Assembly (NCBI GenBank): GCA_965213925.1
Contig: OZ243927.1
Location: 3,040,001-3,104,000 of the forward strand
From: Trueperaceae bacterium
GTDB lineage: Bacteria > Deinococcota > Deinococci > Deinococcales > Trueperaceae
Direction of reading: 5' to 3'
Length of the DNA stretch: 64,000 nt
This document shows, one piece after another, positions 2,206 through 59,359 of the stretch. Positions within the stretch are counted from its first letter, which is position 1; each line of letters begins with the position of its first letter. The notes under the pieces are model-generated. The model was not told the origin of the DNA and searched no databases. It saw only the letters and a list, made by a program, of their open reading frames with translations. Made by a program: the position numbers and the translations under genes.

Positions 2206-3975
2206 TTAGTTAGAACCGCCGGTTGAGTCACTCGAGGACTCGCTACCGTCACCTGTCCACTGCTGCAAAAGCTCCTCATAGGGAACGGTCTGCGGCTCCT
2301 CGTCGGGGCGCTCGGGTTTGGGCGAGCCGGGTTGCTCCAACCAGTAGGACGCTTCGCGCGGCTCGTTGAGCTGGGGCGAGCAGGTTTCCATGTCGGCACG
2401 CTCGAGGCGAGCCATGATGCCGTCTTGCTGCTCAGCGAGCGTGTTCAAGGCTTCTTCGACGGTTGCGTCACCCGTGATCGCGTTGGCGATATTCTGCCAC
2501 CAGAGCTGCGAGAGTTTGGGGTAGTCGGGCACGTTGGGTCCCGAGTCGGTCCACTGGTTCTCAACAGGCGAGCGGTAGAACTCGATGATGCCGCCGTACT
2601 GGTCGATATTCTCAGTCAGGTAGTCGCTCTCCACCGTCGAGCGGCGCACGGGCGTCCCGCCGACCAAGAACTTCTTCAAGGAGACCGTCTTCGAGCTGGC
2701 GAACTGCGCCCAGAGCCAGGCGGCGGCGCGGCGGTCGCCTTCGACGTTCGTAAGGATAGTCCAAGAGCCCGCGTCCTGATAGCCGACCTTCATGCCCTCG
2801 TCCCAATACTTGCCGTGCGGCGTGGGGGCGACGCGCCAACGCAAGGAGCCGTCGTCATTGACAACCGGGTTGCCGGGCTCGCGGAAGATGGGGTCGGAGA
2901 GCCAAGTGATGTACTGGAAGACGCGCTGGGCGATCTGCCCCTGACCCGGAACGGGTCCCGCCTCGCTCCAGGTGATGGACGCTGCCTGAGGCGGCGCGTA
3001 AGCTTTGAGCCAGTCGATATAGGTCTGCAAGGCGTACTGCGCCGCCGGACCGTTGATCGCGCCGCCGCGCGTGACCGACGAACCCTGCGGGCGGCAGTCC
3101 TCGACGCGGATGCCCCACTCGTCCACCGGGATGCCGTTCGGCAAGCCCGTGTCGCCGACGCCTGCGATGCTCATCCAGGCGTCTGTGAAGCGCCAGCCGA
3201 GCGAGACGTCTTTTTTGCCGTAGTCCATGTGACCGTAGACCTGTGTGCCGTCAATCGTGCCGTCGCCGTTGACCTCGTTGGTGAAGAAGTTGGCGATGTC
3301 TTCGTACGCTGCCCAGTTCACGGGAACGCCCAACTCGTAGCCGTAGATATCCATGAACTGCTGCTTGATATTCTCGTCCGTGAACCAGTCGTAGCGGAAC
3401 CAGTAGAGGTTGGCGAACTGCTGGTCGGGGAGCTGAAGCTGGTTGCCCTCGTAATCCTGCCCGAACTCTAAGTTCATCCAGTCGTCTAGGTCCAACGTCG
3501 GGTTAGTGACGTCCGCGCCCTCGTTCGCCATGTAATCCGTGAGGTTCACCGCCGAGCCGTAGCGCAGATGCGTGCCGATGAGATCGGCGTCATTGACGTA
3601 GATGTCGTAGATATTCTGCCCCGAGTTGAGCTGCGTCTGGAGGCGCTCCACCACGTCGCCCTCACCGATGATGTCGTGGGTGACGTTGATACCGCAGATT
3701 TCGTTAAACGCTTGCGTCAGCGTTTCGGACTCGTAGGTGTGCGTGCGGATGTTTTCAGCGACAGAGGAAATCTCCATACCCCGGTAGGGCTCGCACGCCT
3801 GAATGAACCACTCCATCTCGGCGAGCTGCTCCTCACGCGAAATCGCCGAGGGCGTAAACTCGTCGTCGATCCAGCGCTCAGCCGCCGCCATGCGCTGCTC
3901 GGTGTCGTCTTGCGCGACGCCGGAGCTGACCATCAGCGCGGCGAGGAGACCTAAAACAATCAACTTGATCTTCAC
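2206..3975 (-). CDS. Glycerol ABC transporter substrate-binding protein (Rhizobium GlpV-like)
   Basis: Signal peptide. Motifs QLPDQQFANLYWFRYDWF, YGYELGVPVNWAAYEDIA and GHMDYGKKD are typical of this SBP family, and the gene is next to glpFK. Confidence 0.88.
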   Translation of the reverse strand: MKIKLIVLGLLAALMVSSGVAQDDTEQRMAAAERWIDDEFTPSAISREEQLAEMEWFIQACEPYRGMEISSVAENIRTHTYESETLTQAFNEICGINVTHDIIGEGDVVERLQTQLNSGQNIYDIYVNDADLIGTHLRYGSAVNLTDYMANEGADVTNPTLDLDDWMNLEFGQDYEGNQLQLPDQQFANLYWFRYDWFTDENIKQQFMDIYGYELGVPVNWAAYEDIANFFTNEVNGDGTIDGTQVYGHMDYGKKDVSLGWRFTDAWMSIAGVGDTGLPNGIPVDEWGIRVEDCRPQGSSVTRGGAINGPAAQYALQTYIDWLKAYAPPQAASITWSEAGPVPGQGQIAQRVFQYITWLSDPIFREPGNPVVNDDGSLRWRVAPTPHGKYWDEGMKVGYQDAGSWTILTNVEGDRRAAAWLWAQFASSKTVSLKKFLVGGTPVRRSTVESDYLTENIDQYGGIIEFYRSPVENQWTDSGPNVPDYPKLSQLWWQNIANAITGDATVEEALNTLAEQQDGIMARLERADMETCSPQLNEPREASYWLEQPGSPKPERPDEEPQTVPYEELLQQWTGDGSESSSDSTGGSN

Positions 3976-4090
3976 AAAAACCCCTTTATGAGTGTGTTGA
4001 CTAGAGCGTAGGGTTGGTGGATATAGGGCTTATCACCTCCTTTCAAGGATTTTCTTGTTACGACACGCCGCGCTTATCCGCTGCTTGCTC

Positions 4091-4119
4091 GTAGGGGCGG
4101 GTTCCAAACCCGCCCCTAC
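4091..4119. repeat. GTAG-type REP-like palindrome
   Basis: GTAGGGGCGGGTT-CCA-AACCCGCCCCTAC. A second degenerate copy (GTAGGGGGGATTCAT...GCCCCTAC) lies at about 4160-4198. Confidence 0.8.
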
Positions 4120-4233
4120 ACTGCGCCGCATCACCTACATGGGAAGACAGCGCTGCTTCGTAGGGGGGATTCATACAGTGATAAATATATGCCCCTACGC
4201 CGTCCGCAGTAGTGGCAAACATTGTGAAGGAAC

Positions 4234-4530
4234 CTACCCATAACGCACCACCACAAAGATGAGCACGAACGCAATCGGCAAGGCGTACCAGAGCGTCACG
4301 CCCGGCACGAACGCCACCCACAAGAGCATCGTCCCGAAAAAGATCAGTACGCTTAAAAAGAAGCGTTCGCCGCGTGTAAAGGCGACGGGCAAGAAACCTT
4401 GCCGCTTGACGCTCGAGTTGCGGACGTCCCAGATGGTCATGCCGGTAAGGGCGAGGGCTAAGAGGATGAAAAATACGGCGGTGGGAACCGTCCACTCCAT
4501 CCAACCTAAAAAGGTGCTCGAGCCACTCAC
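4234..4530 (-). CDS. Small membrane protein, DUF2160 family (GlpU-like)
   Basis: WMEWTVPTAVFF...RQGFLPVAFTRGERFFLS pattern, positioned between the permease and the SBP. Confidence 0.85.
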   Translation of the reverse strand: MSGSSTFLGWMEWTVPTAVFFILLALALTGMTIWDVRNSSVKRQGFLPVAFTRGERFFLSVLIFFGTMLLWVAFVPGVTLWYALPIAFVLIFVVVRYG

Positions 4531-4532
4531 AC

Positions 4533-5414
4533 TTACACCCGCCCTAACGCGAAGCCTTTAGCGAGGTAGTCGCGCACGAAGTAGATGAGAATCGCGCCGG
4601 GAATGATCATCAGAATCCCCGCCGCCGCGATCACGCCCCAGTCCCAGCCTTCCGCGCCCAACGAGCGAGAGAGCGTCACGACGATGGGCTTCGTCTCCGT
4701 GCCCGTGAGGGTCCGCGCCATGAGCAGCTCCACCCACGAAAAGAGAAAGGAGAAAAACGCTGCTACGCCGATGCCGGGACCGATGAGCGGCAGAAATATC
4801 TTGTAGAAGAACGCGGGGAACGAGTAGCCGTCGATGTAGGCGGTCTCGTCGATGGCTTTGGGTATACCCGACATAAAGCCCTCTAAAATCCAGATCGCGA
4901 GCGGCACGCTGAAAAGCGTATGGGCGAGCGCCACAGCGAGGGGCGTGTCGAAAATCCCCATGTTCGAGTAGAGCTGAAAGAAGGGCAGTAAGAAGACCGC
5001 GCCCGGAGCCATGCGGTTGGTGAGGAGCCAGAAGAAGAGGTGGTGGTCGCCGCGAAAGGTGTAGCGAGAGAAAGCGTAGGCGGCGGGCAGCGCCACCAAG
5101 AGCGTGATGACGACGTTAAGCGCTACGTAGGTCAGCGAGTTGAAAAACGCCTCACGCCAGAAGGGTTGGTTGAAGATTTCGGCGTAGTTCGAGAGCGTCG
5201 GGTTGCGCGGCAAAAAGCCTGTCGCACTGCCCGCTAGCCCCAAAATCTCCTCGTTCGTCTTGAACGACATCGAGAGCATCCAGAGAAGCGGCGCGAAGAG
5301 GAAGATGAAGTACGCCGCCATGCCGAGGGTGCGCACGCTAAAGTAGCGCCCTAGATTGAAATTGGTGCTGCCTTCTTCCGCCTTTGCCGCCCTCGGTTTG
5401 TCGGTCCTGTCCAT
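4533..5414 (-). CDS. Carbohydrate (glycerol) ABC transporter permease
   Basis: Six TM segments, EAA-like loop IDETAYIDG, C-terminal AKGFALGRV. Confidence 0.93.
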   Translation of the reverse strand: MDRTDKPRAAKAEEGSTNFNLGRYFSVRTLGMAAYFIFLFAPLLWMLSMSFKTNEEILGLAGSATGFLPRNPTLSNYAEIFNQPFWREAFFNSLTYVALNVVITLLVALPAAYAFSRYTFRGDHHLFFWLLTNRMAPGAVFLLPFFQLYSNMGIFDTPLAVALAHTLFSVPLAIWILEGFMSGIPKAIDETAYIDGYSFPAFFYKIFLPLIGPGIGVAAFFSFLFSWVELLMARTLTGTETKPIVVTLSRSLGAEGWDWGVIAAAGILMIIPGAILIYFVRDYLAKGFALGRV

Positions 5415-5415
5415 G

Positions 5416-6300
5416 TCAGCCCTCCTGTCCTTGCGCCTCGTTGCCCGTGCCCACGCTCGTCAGCACGAGGAAAAACACGTACGAGATGACCAAGATGATG
5501 AAGAAGTAAGTGAGAGACAAAGCTGCCGCGTAGCCGAACTCGAAGCCGCCCACCGCCTTGCGCACCAGCACGTCGCTCAAGAAGGTCGTGGTGTTGCCGG
5601 GTCCGCCGCCCGTTAAGAGCGAGACCTCGATATAGATGCGAAACGAGTCCATGAAGCGGAGCAAGATACCGATGGTCAACACGCTCCGCAGGCGCGGCAA
5701 GATGACGTAGCGAAAGGTCTTCCAGCGCGACGCGCCGTCGATTCGCGCGGCTTGGAAATAGGCGTCAGGAATCGCAGTGAGACCCGAAAAGCAGAGGAGC
5801 GCGATCAGCGGCGTCCAGTGCCACACGTCCATAAACACCACGGTCCAGTAGGCGTCGATGGAGTTTAGTGCGACGTTGTAGTCATAACCGAAGAGCCCGA
5901 AGACACCCGGCACAAAACCTAAGTCACCCCGCGTAAAGACGCGCCAGATGATGCCGACAACGTTCCAAGGAATGAGGAGGGGCAACCCGAGCGCGATGAG
6001 CGAGGCGGTCACGCCCCAACCCTTTTTGGGCATCCCGAGCGCGATGAGGATGCCTAAGGGCACTTCGATAAGGAGAATCAGCAGCGAGAAGATGACCTGG
6101 CGCTGCAACGCGCCGATAAAGAGAGGGTCATTCAGGACGGTGCGGTAGTTCTCCAAGCCTATCCAGAGCGGGTCTAAGCCTGGCAGGATATCCTGAAACG
6201 AATAGTTGATGACCGTCATAAAGGGGATAAAGGCGTTGACGGACAGAACAATCAGCGCGGGGATGAGGAAAAACCACGCTTTCTGGTTGACGGTCTTCAC
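5416..6300 (-). CDS. Carbohydrate (glycerol) ABC transporter permease
   Basis: MDVWHWTP, QAARIDGAS EAA loop, LTGGGPGNTT. Confidence 0.93.
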   Translation of the reverse strand: MKTVNQKAWFFLIPALIVLSVNAFIPFMTVINYSFQDILPGLDPLWIGLENYRTVLNDPLFIGALQRQVIFSLLILLIEVPLGILIALGMPKKGWGVTASLIALGLPLLIPWNVVGIIWRVFTRGDLGFVPGVFGLFGYDYNVALNSIDAYWTVVFMDVWHWTPLIALLCFSGLTAIPDAYFQAARIDGASRWKTFRYVILPRLRSVLTIGILLRFMDSFRIYIEVSLLTGGGPGNTTTFLSDVLVRKAVGGFEFGYAAALSLTYFFIILVISYVFFLVLTSVGTGNEAQGQEG

Positions 6301-53775: not shown

Positions 53776-55110
53776 ATGATGGAACGCCTGATCAGTCTTC
53801 TCGGCATGGTGGTACTACTTGGCATCGGCTTTTTACTCTCCAAACATAAACGCAGCATCAGCCCGCGTACGGTCTTAGGCGCGCTCGCCATTCAGGTCTT
53901 GTTCGGCTTCATCGTGCTGCGCTGGCCCCTGGGTCGGCAAGCCTTGCAAGGGGTCTCGTCGGGCGTGCAAAACGTCATCGGCTACGCGAACGAGGGCATC
54001 AACTTCCTCTTCGGCGGGCTCACCGCGCCGAACTCGGAGATCAGTCAGAATCTAGGGACGGTCTTCGCCTTTCAGGTTTTGCCCATCATCGTCTTTTTCT
54101 CGTCGCTGATTTCGGTGCTCTATTTCTTGGGCATCATGCAGTGGGTGGTGCGGCTTTTAGGCGGCGCACTCGCGAAGCTCTTGGGGACGAGCCGCCCCGA
54201 GTCTTTATCAGCGAGCGCGAACATCTTTGTGGGGCAGACCGAAGCGCCCTTAACCGTGCGCCCCTACATCGCCAAGATGAGCGAGTCCGAACTCTTCGCG
54301 GTGATGGTGGGTGGACTGGCGTCGGTGGCGGGCTCGGTCTTGGCGGGCTACGCGCAGTTGGGGATACGGCTCGAGTACCTCATCGCCGCGAGCTTCATGG
54401 CGGCACCTGCGGGCTTACTCTTCGCCAAGCTCATCATTCCCGAGGTCGAAGCGGAGTCGGACGATAAGGTGACGCTGGACGGGGCGGATGATGGGTCCGA
54501 CTCAACCGAAAATAAAGAGGTCGATGAAGAAACCGAAGCGAGAGAGGACGAGAGCGCAAATGAAAATGGGGGTGAGAGCGCCGCGGACGCCGCCAACGTC
54601 TTCGACGCGGCGGCGAGGGGGGCCTCGGACGGGCTGCAACTCGCCCTCAACGTCGGCGCGATGCTGCTCGCCTTCGTCGGGCTGATTGCACTTATCAATG
54701 GGCTTTTGGGCGGCGTCGGCGGACTGTTTGGCTACCCCGAACTCTCCTTCGAGCAGCTTCTGGGCTACCTCTTCGCGCCGCTCGCTTTTGTCATCGGCGT
54801 GCCCTGGGCGGACGCGCCTTTAGCGGGCAACTTCATCGGGCAAAAAATCGTCGTGAACGAATTCGTCGCCTTTATCGCCTTTCAGGATGTTTTAGGAGAT
54901 TTGAGCACGCGCACCGAAGCGATCATCACCTTTGCGCTGACGGGCTTCGCGAACTTCGCGTCCTTGGCGATTCTGTTAGGCGGGCTCGGCGGGATCGCGC
55001 CCACAAGACGCGCCGACATCGCTCGCTTAGGGCTTTACGCGGTGGCAGGCGCGACGCTGGCGAATTTGATGAGCGCGGCGATTGCGGGGTTATTTGTAGT
55101 GGGAGGATAG
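53776..55110 (+). CDS. nupC: Concentrative nucleoside transporter (NupC/CNT family)
   Basis: [34 protein letters not shown]. Confidence 0.93.
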
Positions 55111-55350
55111 AGCGTTGTAGCTAGTCAAAAGGGTCTGACCCTCTGCCGCTTGCGACGTAAGGAGCTTCATCAATATGACAAAGATGTACGACGACTCCTT
55201 CGAATACTCTATCCGCTTGCGGCGAAGTTTGCTATTCGAAACGCAAACTGCGTTATGTTTCTTAGACTGTGTCACGCAAAGGCTTAAGCGACTACTTGAG
55301 TAAGAAAGCTGTAAAACTAGATTGCTTATAGTCTTAGGTCGGGAGGCTAT

Positions 55351-56751
55351 ATGAGATCACAGCTTTTTTTATCCGTTCTTCTAACTTTAGTAACCCTTTC
55401 TACGTGTGCTTTTGCGCAACCAGACTTTTCTGTGCAGGCTCGAGAGCTTGATAAGGTTGCGGTCAAGCAAGCCGTCAGTATGGCGCGTTCGCTGCCTTCA
55501 GCCCAGCTAGCCGTCAACGTTCTTGAAAAAGAACAAATTCTACCCTTATGGAATAACGCTAAGGGGGCAGGAAATAAAGAGCAAATAGCGCTAGTTGTTC
55601 CAACGAATGTTGACACAGTAACTCTTCAATTCTATCTAAACCAGAACGAGCTAACGTCAACGGTTATTCATACTATATCAACAGACGGCTATCCGATCTG
55701 TCACTACCCGAAAGGGAATGTAGAAAACGCTCATACGCTTTTTGTTGGACGCGCGGCTATCAAGGCTCACCTTAGTCAACACGGCGATACCTTAGGTCCA
55801 TGTGAGGGGGGAGAACACGCTAAGGGAGTAGAGGCAACATACATTGATGTGAGCGCCGGATTTGTACTTCGCTATCTGCTTTTGCCTAATGCAAAGATCA
55901 AAGGACAAGAAGCGGCATTGTGGCAAGGAGCCGGCAGCTTGCAGGAGATGAGCACGCCTGTCCCTACCAATACGGATTCGCTCAAGAAGTTCTTAGAAGA
56001 TAATCCTGTACCAGACCTTCCTGAACCGTTGGAGCCAGAGCTAGGTTCTCAAGGGTGGCTTTCAACACTTGGACCAAATGAGTGCGGTGCGCAAGGCGAA
56101 GAGTGTGCCATCAGTGACCCGACACCACCACCTGATCAAACTCCTCCAAACCCTTTCGAACCTATCCCTGGCGATGACAGTGGTGCTCCCGAAGAAGATA
56201 CTTGTGACGAAGAAAAACTAGGTGACTTGCGAGATGATAGAGATGATGCGCAAGGTGAGCTTATTGATGCTGATTTTGTGAAAGACACTGCGAGAGACGC
56301 GGCAGATAAAGTGTACAAAGAAGTTGTAGACCTTCGTTTCTTGCTAACAGATATCTACCAAGATTTGGATTCTGTCAATGAAGACATCGAAGATGCTCTA
56401 GATGACCTCAACGCTGTACTAAGCGACGGAAATACGAACGCCGGAGAAATAGGGTGGGATTGCATTGGAGGCTTAGATTTAATGGCTTGCTGGCGTGAAA
56501 ACTTTCAGAACAAAGGTCTAAATCAAGAGGCTAAAGAGATAAACCAAAAAATTGACGACTTACAGAAACGTGCGGATGAGTTGACGAAAGACTATACCCA
56601 AGTTGCAGGTGAGCTTGGAAGAAAAAATGCGGAATATGAAAACCTCAAAGCTGTATATGAAGAAGCCAAGCGCGTCTACAACGAAAAGCGCGAAGCCTAC
56701 AACACGGCAAACCAAAAGTATCAGAACTACAAAGATAAGAACTGCGACTAA
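55351..56751 (+). CDS. Secreted hypothetical protein with 8 mature Cys, Pro-rich linker and long coiled-coil C-terminus
   Basis: RBS GGAGG, signal peptide ending AFA-Q, long open frame in AT-rich DNA, heptad-like helices. No family recognised. Confidence 0.85.
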   Translation: MRSQLFLSVLLTLVTLSTCAFAQPDFSVQARELDKVAVKQAVSMARSLPSAQLAVNVLEKEQILPLWNNAKGAGNKEQIALVVPTNVDTVTLQFYLNQNELTSTVIHTISTDGYPICHYPKGNVENAHTLFVGRAAIKAHLSQHGDTLGPCEGGEHAKGVEATYIDVSAGFVLRYLLLPNAKIKGQEAALWQGAGSLQEMSTPVPTNTDSLKKFLEDNPVPDLPEPLEPELGSQGWLSTLGPNECGAQGEECAISDPTPPPDQTPPNPFEPIPGDDSGAPEEDTCDEEKLGDLRDDRDDAQGELIDADFVKDTARDAADKVYKEVVDLRFLLTDIYQDLDSVNEDIEDALDDLNAVLSDGNTNAGEIGWDCIGGLDLMACWRENFQNKGLNQEAKEINQKIDDLQKRADELTKDYTQVAGELGRKNAEYENLKAVYEEAKRVYNEKREAYNTANQKYQNYKDKNCD

Positions 56752-56772
56752 AACCACGAAAGGAGCAATAAG

Positions 56773-57492
56773 GTGAAAAATTATCTGATTTTTCTGCTGC
56801 TAATCAGCCTACTCGCTGCGTGCGGTGGTGTGAGTGCCCCTGACAGCGACACAACTTCGCAAGTAACTTTCGATGTACGAGGAGGTACGCTTAATTACTC
56901 AGCAGGGGTTGGAACGAGCTTTATCTTCGACTTCGGTCTAGCTGACAAAGCCACTAATGAGGTCGAGGTGAGCATTGTAGGACCGGAGGGATGGAATTAT
57001 AACAAACCTGTGCAAAAACGCTATAGCTACACTACTCCGGGGCATAAAATAACCTGGACACAGGTCTTCCAGGATGACGGTGGACGGCATCTCGAGGTAT
57101 TACCCGGTGCCTATGAAGTCACTGCGAAGATAAGTGGCATAGAGAAAAAGAAGGCACTGCGAATCGACTCCGAAGCCCTCAGTAAACCGCAAGGCCTAAA
57201 ATTGACTGAGCTAAGTGAAGGCGTTGTCGCGGCTGAGTGGTCAAGTGTTCCGGCAGCAGAATCTTATCTAATTGAGGTTTTTTCGCCGCAAAGCGGCCTA
57301 GAGCGTGGTATCATTTATACCTACTCAAAACTCAATACTGCTGTGTTCGAGGACTATATGCTTACGCCTGGTGCAACACACTACTTAGGGGTAACAGCTT
57401 TAACAGTTGATTATAGTTCCGTACCCTCTAGCTTAGCTTCCGTGCCAGCCTTCAACACCTCGTACGGTTATATCAAGTTCATCGCTCCCTAA
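56773..57492 (+). CDS. Hypothetical lipoprotein, beta-rich with an FN3-like C-terminal half
   Basis: RBS AGGAG, lipobox LLAAC, P.GL......AEWSSVPAAESYLIEV...LTPGATHYLGVTA FN3-like pattern. Confidence 0.82.
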   Translation: MKNYLIFLLLISLLAACGGVSAPDSDTTSQVTFDVRGGTLNYSAGVGTSFIFDFGLADKATNEVEVSIVGPEGWNYNKPVQKRYSYTTPGHKITWTQVFQDDGGRHLEVLPGAYEVTAKISGIEKKKALRIDSEALSKPQGLKLTELSEGVVAAEWSSVPAAESYLIEVFSPQSGLERGIIYTYSKLNTAVFEDYMLTPGATHYLGVTALTVDYSSVPSSLASVPAFNTSYGYIKFIAP

Positions 57493-57534
57493 TTCAAGAT
57501 TTGGACAAAACATCGGTTGTTCTAGCTGACAGTC

Positions 57535-57562
57535 AAGAGAGCGCAAGTTTGTGCTCTCTTTT
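57535..57562 (+). terminator. Terminator hairpin between convergent genes
   Basis: AAGAGAGCGCA-AGTT-TGTGCTCTCTT-TT. Confidence 0.7.
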
Positions 57563-57600
57563 TAGCTTATTAGTGGATGAGCAAAGACGAGAAAGTGCTT

Positions 57601-58608
57601 TCAAACATTGGGCGTAATCAAAATCTTTCCCTCTGTCATACTCTGCTCGTAGTCGCGGATGCCGTCCACGGCGTTCTCGAGTGAATACCGTCCGCGAATA
57701 TCCGCGCGTAAGTCCGTGGCTAAGGCGCGTTGGACGCGCACGGTGCGTAAGAGGAAGTTGGGTAACGCCAAGTTCTCTAAGTAGTCCGAGAGCCAGAAGC
57801 CTTCGACCCGCTGGTCTTCGAAGATGAGACCTCTCGGGTCCATGCGCACAGGTTCTTCAGATAACGCGCCGTAAACCAAGACCTTACTGCTGCGCGGCAT
57901 GGCGTAGAGGAGTCTCTGCGGCATGTCGCCCGCCACCGCGTCAAAAGCGAAGGTCGCACCGAGTTTATGACACACCTCTTTAAGTTCACTGTCAAAGTCT
58001 GCGTCGCTGCTGTTTAAGACGTGCTCCGCGCCCAGACCTCTTAGCAACTCGACTTGCTCCTCACGCCGCACCACGTGAATCATCGGGAGCTTAAAGCGTT
58101 TGCCGAGTTGCAAGACCATCCGCCCCAACGCGCTCGCGGCGGCGCTCTGCACGACGGCGCGATGTTCGCCCTGCCGCGCCCTTTCGACCAGACCCCACGC
58201 GGTAAAAGGGTTGACTAAGAGCATCGCGCCTTGCTCCGTTGTGACCCGTTTCAAAAGAGGCAAACACATCATCGCATCCACCAAAACGTACTGCGCCCAA
58301 GTGCCGTCCCCTTTCTGCTGCACGCCGCACGCCACACGCTTGCCGACGAGCCATTTTGCGTACGCCCCTTCGCCCGCCACAACCACGCCGCTCGCCTCGA
58401 AGCCGGGCACCGTCGGCAAGGGCTTTTTGAAACCGTACAAGTTGCGCATGAACATGAGGTCGGAGGGGTTGACCGCCGCCGCTTCGACCCTGACGAGGAC
58501 TTGACCCTCTTGCGGCTCGGGGACCTCTTTTTGAGTAAGCTCGAGCGCGTCCAGACCCTCATAGGCGGAGAGTTGTAAAGCGTTCATAGTGCCGGGAATG
58601 TCTGACAT
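57601..58608 (-). CDS. MDR-family (zinc-independent, quinone/enoyl reductase-like) oxidoreductase
   Basis: AVNPSDL, VPGFEASG, VNPFTA, AAASALG, GKILI. The real start is MSDIPG at 58608 after RBS AAGGAG. Confidence 0.9.
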   Translation of the reverse strand: MSDIPGTMNALQLSAYEGLDALELTQKEVPEPQEGQVLVRVEAAAVNPSDLMFMRNLYGFKKPLPTVPGFEASGVVVAGEGAYAKWLVGKRVACGVQQKGDGTWAQYVLVDAMMCLPLLKRVTTEQGAMLLVNPFTAWGLVERARQGEHRAVVQSAAASALGRMVLQLGKRFKLPMIHVVRREEQVELLRGLGAEHVLNSSDADFDSELKEVCHKLGATFAFDAVAGDMPQRLLYAMPRSSKVLVYGALSEEPVRMDPRGLIFEDQRVEGFWLSDYLENLALPNFLLRTVRVQRALATDLRADIRGRYSLENAVDGIRDYEQSMTEGKILITPNV

Positions 58609-58642
58609 AAAATCTCCTTTTGTAGAGGTTACGATACCCTTC

Positions 58643-59359
58643 ATGCCCCTCACAGACCTCTCCGTGCTCCTCATTGTCACCTTCGCCGCCTTTGTCCGCG
58701 CGACGGTGGGGTTTGGCGACGCGCTCATCGCCATGTCGCTGCTCGTTTTGGTCACAGGTTTGGAGACCGCGACGCCGCTCGTCGGTTTGCTCGGCGTTTC
58801 GACGGCGGCGCTTATGCTGCTCCTCTCCTGGCAACAAGTGGACATGAAAAGTATCGCCCCCTTTCTCGGCGCGTCGGCGCTCGGCATTCCGCTGGGCGCA
58901 CTTCTCTTGACCCGTTTCAGCGGCGACGTTCTTATCGCAGGCTTAGGCGTGGTTCTAGTGAGTTTCGGTCTCTTTAAGCTTGCGCAACCTACGCTGCCCG
59001 CCCTGCGCCACCCCGCGCTCACGTTCACGCTCGGGCTGCTCTCCGGGCTTTTCGGCGGCGCGTATAACGTGAGCGGTCCCGTAGCCGTGCTCTACGGCGG
59101 GTTGAGGAGGTGGCCGCCGGAGGTCTTTAGGGCGAGCTTGCAAGGCTACTTCATCGTGACGAGCGTGCTGATCGCCACCTCGCACGGGGTGTACGGGCTC
59201 TGGAGCGCACACGTGTGGCAGCTTTACGCCTTCGCCGTGCCGCTCTCCGCGGCGGCGATCGTTGCAGGGCATAACGTTGCGAAGCGCGTGCCGCGCGGGG
59301 GGTTGGAGCGCCTTATCAACGTCGCCACCGTGCTGCTAGGGCTCACGCTGATGTTCTAA
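58643..59359 (+). CDS. TauE/SafE (TSUP) family transporter
   Basis: ATVGFGDALI, GLLSGLFGGAYNVSGP, hydrophobic throughout. Confidence 0.88.
   Translation: MPLTDLSVLLIVTFAAFVRATVGFGDALIAMSLLVLVTGLETATPLVGLLGVSTAALMLLLSWQQVDMKSIAPFLGASALGIPLGALLLTRFSGDVLIAGLGVVLVSFGLFKLAQPTLPALRHPALTFTLGLLSGLFGGAYNVSGPVAVLYGGLRRWPPEVFRASLQGYFIVTSVLIATSHGVYGLWSAHVWQLYAFAVPLSAAAIVAGHNVAKRVPRGGLERLINVATVLLGLTLMF

Follow-up and report, generated by a model that had tools for sequence, protein, structure and literature searches.

A mobile two-gene cassette of a Trueperaceae bacterium predicted to encode a coiled-coil hairpin protein and a tandem-FN3 lipoprotein

What might be the role of a low-GC pair of genes that encodes a cysteine-rich helical protein with a signal peptide and, next to it, a lipoprotein, when neither product belongs to a named family? 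The pair lies at positions 55,351 to 57,492 of a 64,000-nucleotide stretch of contig OZ243927.1 from a Trueperaceae genome (phylum Deinococcus-Thermus); this whole stretch is called the window below. An earlier note, made from the letters of the window, had seen here a candidate membrane-active or adhesion system composed of a secreted, disulfide-stapled helical hairpin and a partner lipoprotein. In the following, P1 (P0001) and P2 (P0002) denote the products of the first and second gene, G000 the window's own genome, G001 and G002 two sister species of the same genus, and G296 a further genome of the phylum. The reading that we favour, tentatively and with somewhat less than even confidence, is that of a mobile cassette for an exported, disulfide-stapled coiled-coil hairpin rod and a tandem fibronectin type III (FN3) lipoprotein that binds or presents this rod at the cell envelope.

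The predicted hairpin protein and its candidate lipoprotein partner

Behind its signal peptide, P1 would have a globular N-terminal domain, then an acidic linker that is disordered, and finally an antiparallel coiled-coil hairpin (Table 1). With the rise of 1.5 Å per residue of an alpha-helix, the ~78 residues per hairpin helix are predicted to form a rod of roughly 12 nm. In an AlphaFold2 model computed on a 12-sequence alignment (mean predicted local distance difference test (pLDDT) score 79.2, predicted template modelling (pTM) score 0.62), both long helices, 287-364 and 377-464, mostly exceed a pLDDT of 90, and a short helix (368-372) sits in the lower-confidence loop between them. Both long helices carry unbroken a/d heptads and otherwise scant hydrophobic surface. 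Their charges (net -17 for helix 1; net +1 with 17 Lys/Arg for helix 2) and the composition of the linker (11 Pro, net charge -11) agree with the acidic helix, the Lys-rich helix and the Pro-rich linker described previously. The N-terminal domain is common to the G000 paralogues and to metagenome relatives, several of which additionally carry a Big_5 Ig-like domain.

Fold searches with the P1 model, whose rows span residues 274-466 only and thus leave out the N-terminal domain, gave no Foldseek match at E≤1e-3 in either PDB or BFVD; the best rows are antiparallel two-helix hairpins. VIA matched this region (residues 283-466) to hairpins of two helices, with Z 9-12 for RipA, colicin E1/E2/E9 fragments, YscO, FliJ, ROP, IpaB/SipB, EnvC and PcsB, in line with the antiparallel hairpin that had been proposed. 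The ESM Atlas gave no usable match for P0001. For the relative P0053 (residues 320-561) it returned generic coiled-coil neighbours only, from a poor model (pLDDT 0.52), and a word-based search with the P0053 hairpin region retrieved P0053 itself only.

The cysteine residues provide a further line of evidence. P0001 has Cys at positions 19, 117, 151, 245, 252, 285, 371, 380 and 465, and the eight mature cysteines counted earlier hold if the signal peptide is cut after AFA at residue 22, a site deduced from the P1 sequence together with the close homologue P0003, in which Tyr replaces Cys19 and the predicted cut falls between TSA and QP. Most P1 relatives have a lipobox Cys instead of such a signal peptidase I (SPase-I)-type signal. 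Across 12 family proteins, of which P0118 appears truncated, the module pair (117/151) is complete in all 12. The linker pair (245/252) is complete in nine and wholly missing from three, with none keeping one residue only. For the base pair (285/465), eight proteins have both residues, three neither (P0004, P0006, P0068) and one a single residue (P0118); for the tip pair (371/380) the corresponding numbers are nine, two (P0004, P0089) and one (again P0118). Half of a pair is thus retained in no intact family protein, and this joint gain and loss, from which only the truncated P0118 departs, supports the disulfide pairings put forward in the earlier note. The hairpin is therefore likely to be stapled by disulfides at its base and at its tip; that the base cysteines lie close together follows, in the model, from hairpin geometry only.

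P2 is a predicted bacterial lipoprotein: its N-terminus (...SLLAAC17GG) contains the lipobox L14-A-A-C17, which agrees with the consensus [LVI][ASTVI][GAS]C, and the Cys is kept in 9 of 12 aligned relatives. In the P2 model (pLDDT 83.3, pTM 0.76), residues 32-131 and 143-237 each form a beta-sandwich domain. With this model Foldseek returned no fewer than 500 matches at E≤1e-3, led by tandem FN3 pairs (best E 4.7e-7). A P2 profile matched fibronectin (6mfa, E 6.4e-9) over profile positions 137-213, that is, in the second domain. The Pfam fn3 model reached the P2 paralogue P0005 below its threshold (E 0.0029, 18.2 bits versus a cut-off of 25) and P0002 not at all, and the first domain matches no sequence family in Pfam or NCBIfam. 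The prediction of an FN3-like lipoprotein thus stood with regard to the lipobox and the fold, but the protein has two Ig/FN3-like domains rather than one. P2 orthologues of equal length and 74-76% identity occur on other contigs, and the named P2 relatives are 'hypothetical proteins' in Meiothermus and Deinococcus-Thermus records.

The two genes go together. A P2-like gene adjoins the P1-like gene at 5/5 loci from three genomes (three of three in G000, one of one in G296, with a 14-bp gap, and the single decayed locus of G002), and the order of the two genes differs among loci. Besides, the 681-residue metagenome protein P0089 is a natural fusion in which a P2-like lipoprotein (residues 1-255, 32% identical to P0002) is followed by a P1-like part; the Cys pairs of linker and tip are missing from it, and it runs 42 residues past the second base Cys. 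Conserved linkage, which had been named as a check on the proposed system, was accordingly found as adjacency at every locus and once as a fusion.

Insertion, distribution and divergence of the cassette

The unit is a discrete 2.5-kb insertion, which both sister species lack at this site. The gap between the nucleoside-transporter and Zn-dehydrogenase genes measures 110 bp in G001, 220 bp in G002 and 2.5 kb in G000. The flanks match the sister genomes at query positions 49-1404 and 3907-5001, and in the junction alignment homology ends at the stop codons of both flanking genes. At the insertion junctions we found no terminal repeats past an 8-nt match. GC content falls to 0.42-0.52 within the unit, against ~0.60 in the flanks (400-nt windows), and the GC values counted by hand in the earlier note (23/60 at 56521-56580; 40/60 at 54961-55020) were exact on recount. 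The insertion's genes have a GC content of 0.46-0.48 and a GC content at third codon positions (GC3) of 0.41-0.47, compared with 0.584 for the genome and a median GC3 of 0.75.

The G000 genome (4.75 Mb, GC 0.584) carries two further, diverged P1/P2 pairs, which makes three copies in all, and each of the three sits in a low-GC islet: the six genes have a GC content of 0.46-0.53 and a GC3 of 0.41-0.52, against a GC3 median of 0.75 and a 5th percentile of 0.63 among long G000 ORFs (open reading frames). One of these cassettes (L003-type) is absent from its site in both sisters. Elsewhere, G002 holds a decayed L003-type copy (L139, G002:C4:859000-868000, about 2900-5740) at 74-84% nucleotide identity, at a site that differs from that of the intact G000 counterpart; what remains there is P1 in fragments, a shortened small membrane ORF and a P2-like ORF without its N-terminal part. 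The other cassette (L002-type) has no match in G001 or G002. The G296 pair (L138) lies in a lower-GC stretch beside ORFs that, as read from their sequence, would be IS200/IS605-like transposase genes. Taken together, the cassette is mobile, multi-copy and fast-diverging. Of note, immediately upstream of the G296 cassette (L138, G296:C11, 60-739, minus strand) lie two ORFs that, again by their sequence, resemble the N-terminal regions of IS200/IS605 tnpA and tnpB.

The family to which the pair belongs is rare and unnamed. The claim of an undescribed family and module draws on searches of Pfam, NCBIfam, PADLOC and PDB and on a literature search with motif strings. No Pfam or NCBIfam model exceeded its curated cut-off for P0001 or P0002, with sub-cut-off coiled-coil noise only for P0001, and scans that included the relatives likewise returned no named family, as had been anticipated from the sequence. 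The motif strings matched no paper in a search of the literature without its supplements, and a keyword search for the system retrieved unrelated papers only. PADLOC matches to LmuB, JetC and LeoB fell on coiled-coil arms of SMC-like ATPases only and were rejected as compositional; the SMC, lamin and gp26 matches of the PDB profile search were likewise confined to the coiled coil.

Among 5.8 billion clustered proteins, P0003 is the single close homologue of P0001 (54% identity, full length). An exhaustive HMMER search yielded 768 proteins at E≤1e-3, and among the 150 of these that were listed, seven have the whole P1 architecture (P0037, P0053, P0068, P0083, P0089, P0096 and the truncated P0118); P0021 is an N-terminal fragment. 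The window's pair displays all traits by which we define the P1 family: a single Cys/His module within the N-terminal domain, then an acidic linker and a two-helix hairpin at the C-terminus, with a P2-like gene next to that for P1. The family profile gave some match in 23 of 364 genomes of the phylum, yet covered the architecture only in G000 (three loci), G296 (one locus) and G002 (fragments); P0001 alone as a query matched 0/40 relatives. A scan of genome contigs confirmed 369 stretches, and among the best 80 of these nearly all match the module only; the loci with the longest coverage (L007, L017, L081, L052) proved not to be full-architecture relatives. None of the five loci from metagenome contigs has the full P1 architecture, one of 24 candidate stretches on viral contigs was confirmed (on the module only), and a tblastn search of plasmids with P0004 matched nothing.

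The module itself is far more common. It has the consensus C-H-x-P-P-G-N-P-x-N-A-H-T-I-x-V ... A-H-L-x-H-G-D-x-L-G-x-C, and C117, H118, T129, A136, H140, H144 and C151 are invariant in the P1 family. Most of the 768 HMMER matches cover residues ~115-153 only, often several times over, and giant secreted proteins carry the module in tandem arrays of up to 15 copies. Its hosts include Myxococcota, Planctomycetota, Chloroflexota, Actinomycetota, Gemmatimonadota and Nitrososphaerota-type archaea. The 'small His-rich module' noticed earlier is thus present, but it is one copy of a widespread ~40-residue module and not unique to P1. Judged by its conserved residues, it might be either a metal site or a disulfide-closed knot. 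Being widespread, often tandem and unmatched by the models of Pfam and NCBIfam, it merits a family entry of its own. We also recorded the module in P0007-P0155 and at loci L007-L086.

Within the family, the copies differ most at the far end of the hairpin. Between P0001 and P0003, which show no indel in the hairpin, the module is 72% identical and the base halves of the two helices 73% and 78%; identity drops to 33% and 32% in the tip-proximal halves and stands at 47% in the tip. The register of the hairpin is held, while its distal half diversifies fastest. The P0001 tip spans 12-17 residues, includes Trp, Ile, Leu, Met and Gly as well as three acidic residues, and reaches a maximum 19-residue Kyte-Doolittle hydropathy of 0.52 (P0003: 0.60). 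In ten relatives other than P0003, by contrast, the tips are low in charge and 19-44 residues long, with a Gly+Ala fraction of 0.32-0.54 and hydropathy maxima of 0.77-2.35 (at least 1.6 in four of the ten).

The longer tips come with an additional gene. All three intact loci with longer tips, plus the decayed G002 copy, contain a small low-GC ORF for a polytopic membrane protein (Table 1), the G002 remnant being 41% identical to the L003 copy of G000. The ORF list of the window locus has no small polytopic membrane ORF.

The features of the window and of the paralogous cassettes are collected in Table 1. The two ORFs lie where the earlier note had placed them, and the ribosome-binding sites and terminator that it mentions are present as well; a scan of the sequence, which put the terminator-like hairpin with its T-run at 57535-57560, returned five terminator-like sites against 3.6 expected in shuffled sequence, so that the match to the terminator consensus is weak when taken alone. 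Downstream, the mechanically called 475-residue ORF at 57601-59028 (minus strand) is probably over-extended, with its Zn-dehydrogenase domains beginning ~139 residues in; a start at 58611 would give a 336-residue protein with ADH_N and ADH_zinc_N. A 256-residue membrane-protein ORF on the plus strand overlaps the excess part.

Table 1. Features of the window locus, and small membrane ORFs of related cassettes
Feature	Position	Strand	Basis or remark
Low-GC insertion with both genes	55104..57605	.	sister-genome flank comparison, GC, GC3
Shine-Dalgarno-like GGGAGG	55341..55346	+	4 nt ahead of P1 ATG
P1 gene	55351..56751	+	ORF, 466 aa, P0001
Signal peptide, residues 1-22	55351..55416	+	SPase-I-type cleavage predicted after AFA; read from sequence
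N-terminal globular alpha/beta domain, residues 30-225	55438..56025	+	pLDDT 81-95 per 10-residue block
~40-aa Cys/His module, residues 114-153 (C117-H118 ... T129 ... H140 ... H144-G-D ... C151)	55690..55809	+	HMMER, family alignment
Disordered acidic Pro-rich linker, residues 231-284, with C245/C252	56041..56202	+	pLDDT <50 over 231-282
Base Cys285 and acidic helix 1 (287-364)	56203..56442	+	model, charge, heptads
Hairpin tip, residues 365-381 (GEIGWDCIGGLDLMACW), with C371/C380	56443..56493	+	pLDDT 54-65
Helix 2 (377-464) and C-terminal Cys465-Asp466	56479..56748	+	model, charge, heptads
Shine-Dalgarno-like AAGGAG	56760..56765	+	7 nt ahead of P2 GTG
P2 gene	56773..57492	+	ORF, 239 aa, P0002, GTG start, lipoprotein
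Terminator-like hairpin, 11-bp stem, then T-run	57535..57570	+	43 nt past P2 stop
Small membrane ORF, 131 aa, ~four hydrophobic segments	G000:C1:2040113-2040508	-	inside paralogous cassette
Small membrane ORF, 140 aa, ~four hydrophobic segments	G000:C1:3631003-3631425	+	inside paralogous cassette
Small membrane ORF, 171 aa, ~four hydrophobic segments	L138:3481-3996	+	inside G296 cassette

Possible roles and competing explanations

Most likely, the products of the cassette act at the envelope or at a surface, probably by inserting into membranes in the relatives and by binding a ligand in the window copy. The usual family form would be a lipid-anchored P1 whose Gly/Ala-rich, glycine-zipper-like hydrophobic head at the tip enters a membrane, and the adjacent small membrane protein may serve as its membrane partner or as an immunity-like protector, as in polymorphic membrane-active toxins. 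P2 likely binds or presents P1 at the cell envelope. The window copy might be a derived, soluble form of this arrangement, with its SPase-I-type signal, its disulfide-closed loop of 12-17 residues and its lack of the small membrane gene, and its variable distal rod and tip would more probably bind a surface or protein ligand than form a pore. The conservation with P0003 and the 74-76% identity of the P2 orthologues lead us to take the window's P1 for a soluble derivative that still functions, by binding and not by insertion. A role in inter-bacterial antagonism or surface interaction, suggested by the mobile, patchy, multi-copy and rapidly diverging cassette, is a guess. Taken further, the family could represent an undescribed class of Sec-exported, lipoprotein-tethered membrane-inserting toxins, each with a glycine-zipper-headed rod, a presenting FN3 lipoprotein and a small immunity protein, that serve antagonism in Deinococcus-Thermus, the short-tip copy of the window being a retargeted, non-inserting derivative; we deem this extended proposal unlikely, though by no means negligible.

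Several observations weigh against the reading that we favour. The hairpin superpositions (Z 9-12) fall in a range that VIA itself flags as a common arrangement of long helices. Just four of the ten relatives reach a tip hydropathy of at least 1.6, the G000 paralogues attain only 0.98 and 1.28, and the P0001 tip is too weakly hydrophobic to span a membrane. Every match to a pore-forming toxin is below significance. The three small membrane ORFs are mutually dissimilar (E 0.9-3.2) and match no family, so their shared function is an assumption. As for P2, the claim that it binds P1 draws on gene order and one fusion only, and no co-divergence of P1 and P2 could be measured (Spearman 0.16, p 0.65), the pairs being all about equally distant and hence of little information on this point. 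P2-like lipoproteins are also far commoner than P1: they occur in 108 of 364 genomes of the phylum, a tally that takes in the unpublished genome G329 with its weak matches, against three for P1, and in Meiothermus-type genomes they adjoin unrelated genes. P2 is hence not a dedicated partner family. At L093, L095, L101, L102, L104 and L106 (family f4 genomes), in several Meiothermus-type genomes, a conserved gene for a ~225-residue P2-like lipoprotein stands beside a gene for a protein whose C-terminal end resembles that of a primary sigma factor (...RERIRQIENKALRKLKYHESRTRKLRDFLD), and no P1-like gene is nearby.

Alternatively, the family could be an envelope-spanning tether or ruler akin to a unimolecular spanin, with the window copy as a soluble offshoot that would compete with such tethers or modulate them. 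Lipobox Cys and hydrophobic tip would supply two anchors in most relatives, the first in one membrane and the second in the other or in the same one, and the rod of roughly 12 nm would fix a distance. Deinococcus-Thermus, the phylum of this organism, has a complex, multilayered envelope; the named P2 relatives, too, are from Meiothermus and Deinococcus-Thermus. A relative also shows a weak match to Rz-like LysB (E 4.5e-4, 20.5 bits versus a cut-off of 92.75). A structural component of the envelope, however, is expected to be conserved, whereas this family is found in 3 of 364 phylum genomes, in low-GC islets, and has decayed in a sister species. Neither holin nor endolysin genes form its context, the sole confirmed stretch on viral contigs is restricted to the module, and the window copy has neither anchor. 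We regard a tether as distinctly unlikely. A phage spanin proper (Rz/Rz1 or unimolecular) was rejected: the neighbours are the nucleoside transporter and the Zn-dehydrogenase, with no lysis cassette, and Foldseek found nothing at E≤1e-3 in BFVD.

The earlier note had likened the Trp/Gly tip to the hydrophobic tongue of ClyA-type toxins, and one may ask whether the window's P1 is itself an alpha-pore former whose tip inserts and whose rods oligomerise, with P2 as chaperone, anchor or immunity factor. The Trp, Ile, Leu, Met and Gly residues of the tip would fit such a function, as would a mobile and fast-evolving cassette. Besides, the NCBIfam model of alpha-xenorhabdolysin subunit A (alph_xenorhab_A) matched below threshold (E 0.009), and a PDB profile search gave non-significant matches to Hbl L1 (0.008), MakA (0.015), Nhe (0.016) and ClyA (0.5). 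Indirectly, the 19-44-residue Gly/Ala tips of the relatives fall, in alignments that are again not significant, on the hydrophobic heads of AopB and of Hbl L1 (the latter with a compositional bias of 0.0), with helices on either side. Yet the P0001 tip is short, carries three acidic residues and peaks at a hydropathy of 0.52; the model shows two helices without a bundle tail, and outside their a/d seam there is hardly any surface on which a larger bundle could pack. The listed Foldseek and VIA rows contain no chain of the ClyA family, although they are filled by generic two-helix hairpins and so do not speak against an unlisted family, and in the listed VIA rows neither ClyA-family nor colicin pore-domain nor spanin structures stand out from these. 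The alph_xenorhab_A match scores 15.3 bits against a cut-off of 125, so no curated cut-off is passed, and the window locus, unlike the long-tip loci, has no small membrane gene. A hydrophobic tongue of the ClyA type is thus not borne out for this P1, and pore formation by it appears improbable.

Another candidate function is that of a regulator of the EnvC/PcsB/RipA kind, in which the tip of the hairpin would engage the periplasmic part of the small polytopic protein and control an activity of the N-terminal domain. VIA placed RipA at Z 12.0, Cg1735 at 10.2, EnvC at 9.7 and PcsB at 9.2, the Foldseek probability for RipA was 0.98, and the Atlas neighbours of the P0053 hairpin are coiled coils of NlpC/P60 and M23 hydrolases (template modelling (TM) score 0.55-0.69). 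The long-tip loci moreover include an adjacent membrane-protein gene. However, dynein stalks, SMC arms and colicins score in the same Z range, and the Atlas model is poor (pLDDT 0.52). Neither P0001 nor the 13 proteins scanned contain a hydrolase, LytM, CHAP or NlpC/P60 domain, FtsEX-like genes are absent from the ORF lists of the loci examined, and the window locus lacks the membrane-protein gene. Such a regulator is, in our view, quite improbable.

Finally, that the window pair has lost its function and is what a long-tip cassette leaves behind as it decays, as the missing lipid anchor, long tip and small membrane gene and the decayed cassette of the sister species G002 might suggest, is very improbable given two intact ORFs with ribosome-binding sites and a terminator, a homologue (P0003) with all eight mature Cys, no hairpin indel and 72-78% identity in module and base helices, and P2 orthologues of equal length at 74-76% identity on other contigs.

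Returning to the favoured mobile cassette of rod and presenting lipoprotein, the three variants within G000, which differ in tip length (long or short), lipid anchor (present or absent) and small membrane gene (present or absent), offer a natural comparison for the function of the tip.

Comparison with known systems

Among known systems, the heads of the ClyA superfamily (Hbl L1 7nmq, NheA 6ezv, MakA 6dfp/7p3r, ClyA 2wcd) resemble the family in that antiparallel helices flank a Gly/Ala-rich head of ~40 residues. Members of this superfamily have an elongated helical-bundle tail of four to five helices and a hydrophobic head or tongue of some 30-40 residues that can enter a bilayer. P1, in contrast, has two helices with disulfide staples, to which a disordered linker and an N-terminal domain are added, and its matches lie at E 0.008-0.5. 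Membership is not supported, in view of the significance of the matches, the bundle tail and, for P0001, the hydrophobic head. The translocators of type III secretion systems (AopB 3wxx_B, IpaB, SipB) likewise combine a coiled coil with a Gly/Ala-rich membrane hairpin; the AopB hairpin aligns with the family tip at a non-significant E of 0.01, and IpaB/SipB fragments reach Z 9.0-9.6 in VIA. P1, however, is made with a Sec signal peptide, and no injectisome genes occur in the ORF lists of the loci examined.

The hairpins of colicins (E2 2ysu, E9 5ew5, E3 2b5u and an E1 fragment, 7nna) share with P1 the long two-helix rod (Z 10.0-11.9). The distal end of the colicin rod meets the target, the genes of both are mobile, and some P1 loci include a small membrane protein, as pore-forming colicins have small membrane immunity proteins (PMC5380434). 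On the other hand, P1 lacks a cytotoxic domain past the hairpin and carries disulfide staples and either a Sec signal or a lipoprotein anchor, and the Z values are in the common-arrangement range. Hydrolase regulators (RipA 9hmx/6ewy, EnvC 8tzl_E, PcsB 4cgk) also have an extracytoplasmic hairpin comparable in length (Z 9.2-12.0; for 6ewy, a Foldseek probability of 0.98), but that of P1 is C-terminal and disulfide-stapled, with neither a hydrolase or LytM domain nor FtsEX-like genes at the loci examined. P2, for its part, resembles tandem FN3 or cytokine-receptor-like ectodomains in having two beta-sandwich domains in a row (Foldseek E 4.7e-7 to 1e-5), but is a bacterial lipoprotein with 10-16% identity to them, and its first domain belongs to no sequence family.

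Glycine-zipper toxins come close to the family in other respects: CdzC/CdzD-CdzI of Caulobacter (PMC5380434), the ionophores of contact-dependent inhibition (CDI) with CdiI (PMC11630599) and EsxX (PMC12744356), membrane-depolarising toxins, have Gly-rich hydrophobic segments, and highly polymorphic small membrane proteins alongside, horizontal acquisition and a patchy distribution are found on both sides. Ionophoric and glycine-zipper toxins are accompanied by small, hydrophobic and highly polymorphic immunity proteins (PMC11630599, PMC5380434). Unlike P1, they are small peptides or C-terminal domains exported by type I, V or VII secretion; no sequence relationship emerged, no search having been aimed at one, and the window copy has neither a long Gly-rich segment nor the small membrane gene. 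If the family is membrane-active, it would add to these systems a simple two-helix, disulfide-locked, hydrophobic-headed and Sec-exported rod paired with an Ig-like lipoprotein, in a phylum, Deinococcus-Thermus, for which to our knowledge few antagonism systems are known.

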